Below the pieces are notes generated by a model that had not been told where the DNA came from, searched no databases, and was given only the letters and a program-made list of their open reading frames with translations. A DNA stretch of 40,502 nucleotides from Promethearchaeota archaeon (GTDB taxonomy: Archaea > Asgardarchaeota > Lokiarchaeia > Sigyniarchaeales > SOKP01): the NCBI GenBank assembly GCA_016839765.1, contig JAEOTP010000032.1, forward strand, positions 1 through 40,502, written 5' to 3'. Every line of letters starts with the position of its first letter. The stretch's first letter is position 1. This document shows positions 23,599 through 36,018 of this stretch, piece by piece. Both the position numbers and the translations under genes were made by a program.

Positions 23599-23955
23599 TT
23601 ATAAATAAATGCTTAATTTATCGATATCATCTTTTAATTTGGAAATACGTTTTATCTGTTTCTCTTCTTCGTCTAACCCTTGCAAATCTTCAGTTGAACT
23701 CATGCGTTCGTCTTCATAAGACTTTTCAACCATCATTCCATATCTAATTGCAAAAGCCACTAATTCGGGTATTATTGAAATCATGGTTTTAAAGCTAAAT
23801 ATTCCACTTAACGTACTCAAGATTGCTATCATCTCTCCAAAAGGGTCTATGTCAATTCCGGGTTGTTTCATCAACACCATTATCTTTTTAAAAAGAACAT
23901 CATAAATTAATTCAAGTTCTTCTTTATTAAGACTGTATTCATCACCCATTTTCAA
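23599..23955 (-). CDS. Hypothetical helical protein with a charged tail ending I-Y-L
   Basis: 118-aa ORF that fills the gap between neighbours. Confidence 0.65.
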   Translation of the reverse strand: MKMGDEYSLNKEELELIYDVLFKKIMVLMKQPGIDIDPFGEMIAILSTLSGIFSFKTMISIIPELVAFAIRYGMMVEKSYEDERMSSTEDLQGLDEEEKQIKRISKLKDDIDKLSIYL

Positions 23956-28738: not shown

Positions 28739-28837
28739 TATCTAAAGTATATGAAAAATCCTTTATATCAATAAAATTATTATTATTAAAGAACGTATTT
28801 ATACAAAAACGTGATTTTTTTAGGAACTAAACTCATG
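28718..28837 (+). repeat. Direct repeat copy 1 (longin gene end + upstream region + start of acyltransferase 1)
   Basis: Near-identical to 29952-30071. Confidence 0.9.
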
Positions 28838-29929
28838 AAGAAAAGATTTAAGACTATAGACTTGCTACGTGGATTGCATATTTTTTTGATGATTTTTCTG
28901 CATCTAAGTGATTGGTGGTTAATGTATGAAGCTTATTGGCTAAGAGATATAATTTATTATATTTTTCTACCCATTGGTACTACGGGTTTTTTATTTATCT
29001 CAGGCGTTAGTGCTACCTTATCATATAAAAGTAATCAATTAAAGCTCAAAGATTCAAATGAATTAGATTGGAAAAAAATAAGAACTATATACATTTTCAG
29101 GGCGTTATTAATTCTGATATTTGGTTTATTGTATAATATTTTCATGGCTTTTAGATTCGGTGATATTTTAGATTTATGGAGTTGGAATGTATTACAAACT
29201 ATTGCATTCTCTCTCATTTTGGTATGGCCACTTCTGAAAACCTCGAAAATTTTTAGAATTTTTGTTGGGTTTATATTATTACTAATTAATGAATTACTCT
29301 TAGCATTTCTAAGAAATTTTGAAGGAAATTTCAATTTATATGGGATTTTATTTCACTTTTTATACAATCCTTTAACTGAATTTACGATCATTTCATTCTT
29401 TACTTTTTTTTTATTTGGCACTGTTGTCGGAGAGCTTGTTTTTGATATTATTCAGCTTAATAACGAGAAGGAAAGGAGAATTGCGGTTAAGAAGATTTTT
29501 TTAAGAAATACGTTAATTCCTGGGAGTATATTAGTAACACTTGGAGTATTATATCAGTTTCCGTCATTTTTTTTACATAATACATTTTCATCATTTATTT
29601 ATGCAATTGGAATTATTTTGGTTGCGTTTTCTTTGTTTATTTCAATAGAAGAATTCCAAATTATTAGAACGAAAAAGAATTATAATATTATGTTTTTTTA
29701 TTCATATTACTCATTTACCATCTATGTAGGGCATTTTTTATTATATTTTCTATTTTTGGGTCAATTAAATGCAGTAAATTTTTGGATCTTGGTTATTATA
29801 ACAATGAGCATTTTAACAGTTTTACTCAGAACCATGTATATAAAATTAGGCCCAAAAGTTTCTTTAAAAATTGCAATAAGCGCAGCAAGTTTCATTTTAG
29901 CAACTAAATTCAGGAAAAACAAAAATTAA
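28835..29929 (+). CDS. HGSNAT-catalytic / DUF1624-like membrane acyltransferase, copy 1
   Basis: RFKTIDLLRG...MIFLH, FLFISGVS, WNVLQTI. Start moved from 28811 to ATG 28835 by alignment with copy 2. Confidence 0.8.
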   Translation: MKKRFKTIDLLRGLHIFLMIFLHLSDWWLMYEAYWLRDIIYYIFLPIGTTGFLFISGVSATLSYKSNQLKLKDSNELDWKKIRTIYIFRALLILIFGLLYNIFMAFRFGDILDLWSWNVLQTIAFSLILVWPLLKTSKIFRIFVGFILLLINELLLAFLRNFEGNFNLYGILFHFLYNPLTEFTIISFFTFFLFGTVVGELVFDIIQLNNEKERRIAVKKIFLRNTLIPGSILVTLGVLYQFPSFFLHNTFSSFIYAIGIILVAFSLFISIEEFQIIRTKKNYNIMFFYSYYSFTIYVGHFLLYFLFLGQLNAVNFWILVIITMSILTVLLRTMYIKLGPKVSLKIAISAASFILATKFRKNKN

Positions 29930-29951
29930 GTTAAATTTTGATGTATTTTTT

Positions 29952-30071
29952 GAATTATTACTATTATTATAGTATCTAAAGGATATGAAAAATCCTTTAT
30001 ATCAATAAATTATTATTATTAAAGAACGTATTTTTAGACAAAAACGTGGTTTTTTAGGAACTAAACTCATG
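29952..30071 (+). repeat. Direct repeat copy 2
   Basis: Begins GAATTATTACTATTATTATAG (ELLLLL*, a relic of the longin C-terminus ELFLLL*), followed by the same upstream sequence. Confidence 0.9.
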
Positions 30072-31166
30072 AAGAAAAGATTCAAGAGTATAGACTTACT
30101 ACGTGGATTGCATATTTTTTTGATGGTTTTTCTTCATCTATGTGATTGGTGGTTAGTTTTTGAAGCTTATTGGTTTAAAGATTTAATACATATTATTTTT
30201 GAACCCATTGGTGCTACAGGTTTTTTATTTATTTCGGGTGTTAGTGCTGCTTTATCGTATAAAAGCAATCTGTTAAAGCTCAAAGATTCAAGTGAATTAA
30301 ATCGGAAAACTATAAAAAATATTTACTTTTTAAGAGCGGTAATACTTCTAATGATTGCTTTATTGTATAATGTTTTATTGGCTTTTAGATTCGGCGACAT
30401 ATCAGATATCTGGAGTTGGAATGTTTTGCAAACCATTGCAATCTCTCTCATTTTGGTGTGGCCATTTTTAAAAACCTCGAAACTAGTAAGGATTTTTATT
30501 GGAATAATATTATTACTGATTAATGAATTACTCTTAGCATTTTTAAGGAATTTTGAAGGAGTTTTTAATTTATATGGGATTTTATTTCATATTTTATACA
30601 ATCCTCTAAATCAATTTACAATCATTTCATTCTTTACTATGTTTTTATTTGGCACTGTTATTGGAGATTTCGTTTTCGACATCACTCTTCTCGATGATGA
30701 GAAGGAAAGGAAAATTATGGTTAGGAATAATTTTTTAATTGGAATATTAATACTCGGGGGCATATTAGTACCAATTGGAGTATTATTTCAGTTTCCTACT
30801 TTTATTTCACGTAATACATTTCCCTCATTTATTTATTCGATTGGAGTAATTTTGGTTATATTTTCTTTGTTAATTTCAATAGAAGAATTTCAACTTATTA
30901 GAACCAAAAAAAATTATAATATTATGTTATTTTTCTCATACTACTCATTTACCATCTATTTAGGACATAATTTATTATATTTTCTGTTTTTGGATCGATT
31001 AAACACAGTGAGTTTTTGGATTCCCATAATTATAACAATGAGCAGTTTAACAATTTTACTCAGAACCATGTTTATAAAAGTAGGACCCAAACTTTCTTTG
31101 AAAACTGGAATAAATGTATTAAGTTTTATAATTGCAACTAAAATTAATAGAAATAAAAAGTATTAG
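30069..31166 (+). CDS. HGSNAT-catalytic / DUF1624-like membrane acyltransferase, copy 2
   Basis: RFKSIDLLRG...MVFLH, FLFISGVS, WNVLQTI; closely similar to copy 1. Confidence 0.8.
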   Translation: MKKRFKSIDLLRGLHIFLMVFLHLCDWWLVFEAYWFKDLIHIIFEPIGATGFLFISGVSAALSYKSNLLKLKDSSELNRKTIKNIYFLRAVILLMIALLYNVLLAFRFGDISDIWSWNVLQTIAISLILVWPFLKTSKLVRIFIGIILLLINELLLAFLRNFEGVFNLYGILFHILYNPLNQFTIISFFTMFLFGTVIGDFVFDITLLDDEKERKIMVRNNFLIGILILGGILVPIGVLFQFPTFISRNTFPSFIYSIGVILVIFSLLISIEEFQLIRTKKNYNIMLFFSYYSFTIYLGHNLLYFLFLDRLNTVSFWIPIIITMSSLTILLRTMFIKVGPKLSLKTGINVLSFIIATKINRNKKY

Positions 31167-31198
31167 TTGTTTCAGTTTTGTCAATTTTCATAATATCT

Positions 31199-31232
31199 TT
31201 TACAAAAATGTAGCTTTTTACAAAATTGTAAA
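31199..31232. promoter_or_regulatory. Tandem palindromic boxes upstream of acyltransferase 3
   Basis: TTTACAA-AA-ATGTAGC and TTTACAA-AA-TTGTAAA, 18 bp apart. Confidence 0.4.
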
Positions 31233-31328
31233 TTAGAAAAGAGTTTTTCTTAAAACTTTAAAAAGCTGGATACTATTTCTTATTAAAGCTTAATAAAATT
31301 TCAGAATTTCAACTAATAATTCTGATGG

Positions 31329-32435
31329 TTGATGATTATAATGGAAAGAATTAAGGGTCTTGATACTATTCGGGGATTTTGCATGTGGATTATGATATAT
31401 GGACACATGATTGATTGGTGGCTAATACAAAGCGATGACTGGTTTCGTCAGTGGTTATTTGGTTTTTTAGAATCAGTTGGGGCTACAGGATTTTTATTCA
31501 TTTCAGGAGCAAGTGCTGCTTTAGCTTTTAGAAGCAATGAATTAAAACTTCAAGCTTTAAACGATTTTAATAAGCTCACAGTAAGAGATGTATACTTTTT
31601 AAGAGCCATTATTATATTATTAATCGGATTTATCTATAACTTTTTTGTGGCTGTCTTATGGAGGGGTGATATTACAGATCTTTGGAGTTGGCTTGTTTTA
31701 CAAACAATAGGTTTTTCGCTAATATTAACTTGGCCTTTTATGAGAACTAGTAGGACTTTCAGAATATTTACTGGAATTTTAATCTTTGTATTAAATTATT
31801 TTCTTTTAGGAATTTTATTACCTTATCAAGAGCAACCCAATTTTGGGGGAAGTTTATTTCATTTACTTTATAATCCCTTAACTCAATATCCCATTTTAAT
31901 GTATTTTAGTGTTTTTCTTATAGGAACTGCAGTAGGAGATAAAATTTCTGAGATAAACATTATAGAAGACCAAAATGAAAGGAAAATAATTTTTAAGAAT
32001 AAATTCATAATTCCTACTTCAATTATCGGAACAATAGTATTACTTTTTGGAATTATAAATTTCTTTCCAGATTTTTTGTTTTTTAATACAATTTCAGCAT
32101 TTGCTTATTCTTTAGGAATTATTCTAATTGCCTTATCGTTTTTTACGGCAATTCAGATATTTGAGCTCATTAAAACAAAAAAAAGTTATAGGTATCTATA
32201 CTTTTATTCATATTATTCATTTACAGTATACTTAGGGCATAATATTTTATATATTCTTTTTGTAGATCAATTAAATGTTATTACCATATGGATTCCTATA
32301 ATAGGAGGAAGTATACTATTTGGATTTCTATTTAGAGCAATGTATCTGAAATTGGGTGCAAAAGCTTCTATAAAGACGGGTATTAGCGCAATGAGCTTTA
32401 TTTTGGCAACCAAATTAAGAAAGAATAAAAAGTAA
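31329..32435 (+). CDS. HGSNAT-catalytic / DUF1624-like membrane acyltransferase, copy 3 (more diverged)
   Basis: RIKGLDTIRG...MIYGH, FLFISGAS, WLVLQTIG. The likely start is the MERIK ATG. Confidence 0.8.
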   Translation: MMIIMERIKGLDTIRGFCMWIMIYGHMIDWWLIQSDDWFRQWLFGFLESVGATGFLFISGASAALAFRSNELKLQALNDFNKLTVRDVYFLRAIIILLIGFIYNFFVAVLWRGDITDLWSWLVLQTIGFSLILTWPFMRTSRTFRIFTGILIFVLNYFLLGILLPYQEQPNFGGSLFHLLYNPLTQYPILMYFSVFLIGTAVGDKISEINIIEDQNERKIIFKNKFIIPTSIIGTIVLLFGIINFFPDFLFFNTISAFAYSLGIILIALSFFTAIQIFELIKTKKSYRYLYFYSYYSFTVYLGHNILYILFVDQLNVITIWIPIIGGSILFGFLFRAMYLKLGAKASIKTGISAMSFILATKLRKNKK

Positions 32436-33922: not shown

Positions 33923-34139
33923 TTTCTTAATATTTTAAATATTTTTCATAAAATAAAAATGGTTTAAGAATTTCACCAATTCTAATACAATTTTGTCCAT
34001 TTTTTATTTCTATTAATTTATTTATACCTCAAAAAAGAATTCATTAAATTACTTCTAAACTAAAAAAATGGAGTTAAAAATTCAATATTACATCAACTCT
34101 ATGTTTATATATCCTAATTTTCTTTTAATACAAAGAGAG

Positions 34140-34487
34140 ATGAATAAGAATAAAGATTATTATGAACTTTTAGGGATTGAAAAAGACGCGACTGAAAGGG
34201 AGATTAAACTAGCATATAGGAAACTGGCCAAAAAATATCACCCAGATGTTAATAAGAGTGATCCTAATGCAAAGGATAAATTTATTGAAATAAAGGAAGC
34301 ATATGATACGTTAATCGATCCTATCAAACGTAGAATCTATGATCAAGCAGGATATAATCCTCGAAATATAGATTGGAACGATATTTTTAGAACAACTGAT
34401 TTTAGGACAATAAGAGAAATATTACGAGAGATGTATGGATATAGAACACCATACTATAAACCTCCTCCTGAAGGTATGTATATATAA
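34140..34487 (+). CDS. Small J-domain protein with a C-terminal PPPEGMYI tail
   Basis: [35 protein letters not shown]. Start placed at ATG 34140 because TTTATATA lies about 30 bp upstream. Confidence 0.9.
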
Positions 34488-35748: not shown

Positions 35749-36018
35749 TTGGTTAAATCATCAAAATCAGACTTAATTAAGAAAATTCAGTCTGATTATA
35801 ATAAAAAGCTGAAAGATTTAGAGTCTAAATTAGCAGTGAAGCATAAAGAACTGAGTCAAATTGAAATTAATCTTGCCCATGAATTAAAAAAGATTGAGCG
35901 CTCTAATATTTCTATGTTAAAGTCAAAAAGGGCTAATTTAAATGCCATTATTATACAATTAAAAAAAGAAATAAAAAAAGTTAATAAAGAAAAAATTAAG
36001 AAACTCAGAAAATTATAA
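35749..36018 (+). CDS. Small basic coiled-coil protein
   Basis: 89 aa, Lys-rich, heptad pattern; TTG start. Confidence 0.55.
   Translation: MVKSSKSDLIKKIQSDYNKKLKDLESKLAVKHKELSQIEINLAHELKKIERSNISMLKSKRANLNAIIIQLKKEIKKVNKEKIKKLRKL

Follow-up and report, generated by a model that had tools for sequence, protein, structure and literature searches.

We analyzed a window of 40,502 nucleotides, the whole stretch of contig JAEOTP010000032.1 presented here, from a Promethearchaeota archaeon whose assembled genome measures 3.3 Mb, has a GC content of 29.7%, and is 96% complete. At positions 34140 to 34487 (+), the window carries a gene that translates to a 115-aa J-domain protein with an HbYX-type tail (hereafter, the J protein). 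Its J-domain (residues 6 to 68; 34155 to 34343, +) is the only domain that Pfam reports (DnaJ, PF00226, E = 2e-26) and has its HPD codons at 34239 to 34247. The same strand then encodes a glycine-depleted remnant of a class-A DnaJ G/F region (residues 69 to 99; 34344 to 34436), a linker that varies in length and sequence among homologues and has low pLDDT (residues 100 to 106; 34437 to 34457), and a conserved tail, KPPPEGMYI, with the stop codon (34458 to 34487). The spacing of this PP-x-x-Hb-Y-X tail is fixed.

Translation of the gene most likely begins at the ATG at 34140, because an ATG 33 codons ahead of the HPD (31 codons in one case) is present in the 29 loci listed, nearly all of them from relatives. 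The DNA 5' of this ATG is unconserved across those 29 loci, which makes longer starts (139 aa from the in-frame ATG at 34068, or 128 aa) unlikely. A TATA-box-like TTTATATA (34104 to 34111, +), a match to consensus only, lies about 30 bases 5' of the start. The nearest relatives have a similar element at an equal distance, and we regard it as a candidate promoter of a stand-alone gene. The neighbours are a divergent B12-binding radical SAM gene and, 180 bases downstream, a co-oriented EamA transporter gene. Across the related loci compared, we found no conserved neighbour or operon for the tailed J gene, and no proteasome or chaperone genes near it. The EamA gene does stay nearby in nine loci of one sub-lineage, as does an 89-aa coiled-coil orphan (window 35749 to 36018, +) in five loci of one sub-lineage. 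Elsewhere in the window, three tandem membrane acyltransferase-3/HGSNAT-like genes occupy 28811 to 32435 (+). An assembly artefact or a pseudogene fragment is ruled out for the J gene, as 120 full-length homologues end alike and their stop codons vary at a fixed position.

The intact HPD J-domain reported in an earlier note on this DNA was borne out by the translated reading frame and by Pfam, and the HPD is kept in 121 of 121 sequences (the J protein and 120 homologues with 65 to 97% identity). The model of the J protein has the four-helix J-domain fold and superimposes on known J-domains, for example 5nro_B with Z 11.2 and an rmsd of 1.0 over 63 residues. Given the intact HPD and 57% identity to this DnaK-bound J-domain, we infer that the J protein would stimulate the DnaK ATPase. 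The earlier note had also described a single short helix and no G/F region after the J-domain. Neither description stands. AlphaFold places two helices there (79 to 85 and 88 to 99), ahead of an unstructured tail, and these are collinear homologues of the G/F helices of class-A DnaJ. Residues 2 to 98 are 58% identical (BLASTP) to the class-A DnaJ of the same Lokiarchaeia family, and the post-J part alone matches its G/F region (hhalign, P 88.8%, E 2.5e-6). Structurally, residues 4 to 100 of the model match the J and G/F parts of Thermus thermophilus DnaJ (4j7z_E; Z 10.2, rmsd 3.3, 86 residues aligned); the JD-GF of DNAJB1 (6z5n) aligned over the J-domain only. The presence of a G/F part matters because such helices and linkers can obstruct the site on Hsp70 or serve it as a pseudo-substrate; for class-A proteins, however, an absence of autoinhibition is reported (PMC12126530). 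The retained helices may thus tune DnaK binding, by autoinhibition or as a pseudo-substrate.

The family's class-A DnaJ is also the parent. In most genomes of the family, the tailed-J profile matched positions ~3 to 100 of a ~380-aa protein, and these proteins are class-A DnaJs with zinc-finger repeats (about 378 aa). In trees built without the tail, all tailed proteins form one branch (100/95), which groups with the family's class-A DnaJ (99/99) to the exclusion of other Asgard DnaJs and the 20 top hits from outside. Note that the tree alignment is short, its bootstrap was not fully settled, and a long class-B row, two tail-less paralogues, and three near-duplicates were left out. On the evidence of tree and alignment, we show the J protein to be the J and G/F part of a class-A dnaJ, duplicated, with its client-binding half replaced by a tail. 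By the same evidence, this happened once, in one Lokiarchaeia family. The trees lend no support to derivation from the class-B dnaJ on C64 or from a source beyond the family.

Compared with its parent, the J protein ends at residue 115 and has no zinc finger, client-binding domain, or dimerisation domain. The G/F glycines are lost, the tail is new, and the gene has left the dnaK locus. The absence of a zinc finger and of a client-binding domain, as the earlier note had it, agrees with Pfam finding DnaJ alone in the 115 aa. Pfam likewise reports no ubiquitin-interacting motif, and we saw no oligomerisation domain. The G/F criterion of class A/B is thus present as a homologous, glycine-depleted remnant; because the client-binding domains are gone, the J protein, judged by its domains, is derived from class A without being a member of class A/B, and is class-C-like.

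The tailed form occurs in 38 of 68 other genomes of its family, in 5 of 9 genera. A profile search did not find it in 232 genomes of other Asgard families; presence was taken as a best E-value of 1e-42 or better, with the best 15 candidates at most scored per genome, and many of the genomes are incomplete. With such patchy presence, the tailed J protein is accessory. Homologues are mostly labelled Promethearchaeota. Three bear NCBI labels of other Asgard groups, two of which the tree places inside the tailed clade, and the labels appear to reflect either mislabelling or transfer. Two divergent tailed copies, ending in PPDTLYI and PPDSLYI, lie in a single genome (G180; L046 and L047). Two related genomes carry a second short J and G/F paralogue of 112 aa that is tail-less (L049:1871-2209, −; L050:1960-2298, +).

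The reading of the J protein as a proteasome partner had been made to depend on a conserved terminal tyrosine, and conserved it is. Among the 121 aligned sequences, position −2 is Y in 120 and F in one, position −3 is M in 120 and L in one, and P109 and P110 are invariant. The last residue varies (I, V, T, or S, and M too in a wider set), and linker residues 100 to 104 are ~50% conserved or less. When the alignment is extended down to 49% identity, only P109, P110, and Y114 remain invariant after position 67, and linker length differs from one sequence to another. A search of 1.84 billion representatives yielded the most distant members, whose ends read PPFGLYI and PPDSIYI. Variation across homologues therefore follows the HbYX pattern, with Hb as M/L/I, Y fixed, and X as I/V/T/S/M. 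Among 32 genomic copies, every possible Pro, Gly, Tyr, and stop codon occurs (four, four, two, and three, respectively), the position of the stop is identical, and the DNA 3' of it is unconserved. Variable synonymous and stop codons at a fixed stop position show selection at the protein level on a free C-terminal PP-x-x-Hb-Y-X peptide; the synonymous variation rules out a DNA- or RNA-level constraint on the tail.

A single Hb-Y-X ending means little, because 56 of 2970 open reading frames in the source genome (1.9%) have one, and published counts are alike. It is conservation that counts, and by this measure the tail is more than chance. Two cautions apply to the figure for Y114: penultimate residues are 25 to 100% conserved across 11 unrelated families of comparable divergence, and the tailed proteins have one common origin, so that the counts are not independent trials. 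No second PP-x-x-Hb-Y-X tail exists among the open reading frames of the source genome. When we searched 150 Asgard genomes with a DNA pattern for a tail donor or other such proteins, matches were at the level of the reversed control.

The tail could also serve to get the J protein degraded or parked on the proteasome, while its client-less J and G/F parts activate or sequester DnaK. We consider such a DnaK tuner quite improbable. The existence of tail-less short J and G/F paralogues in the same family speaks for it, and G/F linkers can be pseudo-substrates (PMC12126530). However, a degron would not obviously need a fixed PP-x-x spacing. To our knowledge, HbYX is a docking signal and not an archaeal degron.

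The host has the machinery that a docking tail would meet. Its genome encodes two proteasome alpha subunits, 44% identical to each other, and three beta subunits. Pro18, Gly20, and Lys66/67 (the equivalents of Pro17, Gly19, and Lys66) are invariant in both alpha paralogues, and judged by these residues the 20S alpha pocket for HbYX is intact. Both paralogues are found across the class, including genomes where the tailed J gene was not found. A partial extra copy, the C-terminal third of an alpha subunit, lies just downstream of an intact gene (C64:90428-90742). Four Cdc48 and two PAN-like host proteins end in MYR, IYR, LFV, FYK, LYS, and FFS; a seventh AAA protein, read as Vps4-like, has no HbYX-type end. 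Three PAC2-family proteins (C96:148703-149506, C96:116360-117154, and C91:21519-22340) end in YFQ, YFR, and LYI. Ubiquitin E2 domains are present. PUB and PUL domains also serve as receptors of p97-type tails, and neither turned up over the cut-off in this 96%-complete genome.

Two DnaKs are encoded. One belongs to a grpE-like/dnaK/class-B dnaJ/clpB-like cluster (C64:119765-126097), in which grpE and clpB are named by position and sequence appearance. The other has a divergent grpE-like gene (C43:52941-55967), so named by position and sequence appearance only. Class-A dnaJ adjoins orthologues of the C43 dnaK in the loci of relatives and was not found in the source assembly. This is likely an assembly gap, because contig C43 ends right past the small gene that precedes class-A dnaJ in a relative.

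By its sequence, the J protein qualifies as an HbYX partner, and we consider it probable that its tail docks between 20S alpha subunits. This reading and the route built on it are favored by the conserved HbYX tail with its fixed free C-terminus under protein-level selection, the flexible and variable linker, the intact alpha pockets, the HbYX-ended host ATPases, the lack of a PUB/PUL receptor in the genome searched, and the position of the parent dnaJ beside a C43-type dnaK. The archaeal 20S core is activated by HbYX peptides of 7 residues (PMC3493965). The same study found HbYX in 63 of 1484 Thermoplasma acidophilum proteins and expected few of them to gate the core without the avidity of a ring. 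The low avidity of a single tail is accordingly the main physical objection to docking, as no oligomerisation domain was seen. PI31 further illustrates that function need not depend strictly on HbYX, even where the motif is conserved and follows a Pro-rich stretch (PMC10319324). The PI31 case, the lack of a genomic link in the loci compared, the absent client-binding domain, the conservation of penultimate residues elsewhere, and the patchy presence all count against docking or against the route built on it.

We also predicted a complex of J-protein residues 86 to 115 with two copies of each alpha subunit. It scored 0.34 (runs of 0.36, 0.34, and 0.12) against 0.06 for the best control, a mark graded as weak support. 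The runs agree in at least 56% of contacts and the partner pLDDT is 49 to 54; the output gave no interface. Of 80 solved pairs, 58 attained the mark, as did 2 of 110 mismatched pairs; at 0.60 or below there were only 7 solved pairs and both mismatches. The pass may reflect memory of solved HbYX-20S complexes, because such complexes exist, and the prediction shifts the odds of docking only slightly.

These figures bear on a further explanation, by which the receptor of the tail is not the 20S core (but, for example, a TPR or other C-terminal-peptide binder, Cdc48, or the substrate site of DnaK) and the HbYX match is incidental. We regard this as unlikely. The complex score is weak, with one run at 0.12, and conservation covers K-P-P-P-E-G as well, beyond the three residues that the pocket needs; HbYX tails can also bind non-proteasome pockets, for example presenilin (PMC11475706). 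Yet tail variation obeys the HbYX rule exactly, the control in which one alpha paralogue was replaced fell to 0.06, and the source genome shows no PUB/PUL domain over the cut-off.

If the tail docks on the 20S core, it would insert into the Lys66 pocket where two alpha subunits meet, the prolines serving as a rigid spacer. The J-domain, on its 16-residue tether, would then stimulate ATP hydrolysis in a DnaK, most likely of the C43 type that adjoins the parent dnaJ, and DnaK would clamp chains at the alpha-ring face. That docking and DnaK activation occur there together we hold to be reasonably likely. In the last and weakest step, repeated clamping and GrpE release would unfold damaged proteins next to the gate, whose opening the tail assists. 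The result would be a route independent of PAN and Cdc48, and it would vie with these ATPases for their pockets. J-domains bind Hsp70 in its ATP state, not client-loaded ADP-DnaK, and induce it to capture a chain close by. For this reason, the J protein could not simply tow client-loaded DnaK to the proteasome, and the earlier note's idea of tethering DnaK and its clients agrees only in part with how Hsp70 cycles. Because J-domains trigger client capture and not delivery, client degradation is less sure than docking, and the whole route from chaperone to degraded client, though we prefer it to the alternatives, is a tentative proposal that may well be wrong.

The capture of nearby chains also makes DnaK acting on the proteasome itself a serious alternative, if an unlikely one. 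Here, docking is the same and the client differs: alpha paralogues would be folded or assembled into rings, off-pathway rings dissolved, or stalled chains pulled from the gate. An Hsp70 anchored at a pore draws chains in its own direction, targeting J proteins serve their own complexes, and for a J protein with no client-binding domain, the obvious client is the particle on which it docks. Two alpha paralogues are present in the host, PbaA/PbaB are cited in PMC3493965 as binding proteasome precursors via HbYX, and yeast Hsp70/Hsp110 promote early alpha-subunit assembly (PMC9855889). On the other hand, both alpha paralogues also occur in genomes where the tailed J gene was not found, and the host already has three PAC2-family chaperones.

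Known systems share single aspects of the J protein. PAN, Cdc48/VAT, AMA, and PbaA/PbaB resemble it in their flexible tail with a free Hb-Y-X at the C-terminus (PMC3493965), whereas the J protein has no AAA or PAC2 domain and no known ring or oligomer; any ATP-driven work would come from DnaK in trans. PI31 (PSMF1) has a Pro-rich C-terminal region ending in HbYX (PMC10319324) and has been described as an adaptor linking proteasomes to another machine (PMC6900516). We do not take the likeness in tail type as homology; PI31 has an FP domain and a long disordered inhibitor region in place of a J-domain. Human DNAJB2/HSJ1 (J, G/F, and UIMs) is described as coupling Hsp70 to proteasomal degradation (PMC5409130). 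The likeness would be in purpose and of independent origin: HSJ1 binds client ubiquitin, whereas the J protein lacks UIMs and would contact the 20S core itself.

In class-C J proteins such as Pam18, Sec63, Zuo1, auxilin, and HscB, a J-domain with a targeting element localises Hsp70, and the J protein would share this logic of a J-domain tethered at a pore or complex. We know of none among these five that targets the 20S core. An ESM Atlas search with the J protein returned generic DnaJ clusters only. We found no description of a J-domain with an HbYX tail in the titles and abstracts searched, with subscription papers mostly outside reach, and the ProEnd text mentions neither DnaJ nor Asgard.

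The hand-over of terminally misfolded proteins from Hsp70 to the proteasome has been worked out mainly in eukaryotes, with ubiquitin-based factors. If our reading is true, no coupling could be simpler than a 115-residue protein that places a J-domain directly on the 20S ring, and one duplication plus a nine-residue tail would have wired a chaperone system to the archaeal proteasome. Such coupling through a J protein could be reconstituted from a few purified proteins. Because the gene is found in one family only, the tailed J protein is a lineage-specific innovation and not evidence for an ancestral eukaryotic state.

The J protein may not be alone. From the same genome, we picked three other non-ATPase proteins because they end in HbYX, a small and hand-picked sample. 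A disulfide oxidoreductase with two thioredoxin folds (L160:478-1170, +; C17:102477-103169) ends in GGMYA or GMYS in 6 of 6 family genomes, whereas its tandem paralogue has no HbYX-type end. A 118-aa helical orphan in the window (23599 to 23955, −) ends in IYL; it was found in two genera only and keeps Hb-Y/F-L in all 9 copies found. That three unrelated host proteins keep Hb-Y/F-X or penultimate-Tyr ends points to one common receptor, which again tells against a tail that binds elsewhere, and their conservation suggests a common docking code in this lineage. The J protein might then provide a direct route from Hsp70 to the 20S core, independent of ubiquitin and PAN, as one of several non-ATPase HbYX dockers alongside the oxidoreductase paralogue and the two Pfam-less proteins. 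We think this conceivable, with doubt still the heavier side. If true, archaea would possess a previously undescribed layer of adaptors that converged with the Hsp70-proteasome triage factors of eukaryotes. The remaining protein, of 163 aa (L180:1501-1989, −; C39:8847-9338), has no Pfam, PDB, or Atlas match and a poor model (pLDDT 54). All 23 homologues, which come from eight Asgard families and reach as low as ~22 to 30% identity, nonetheless retain its penultimate Tyr, with the ends LYI, MYL, MYG, QYL, LYG, SYT, PYT, and PYC, which makes it a candidate 20S partner of wider distribution than the J protein.
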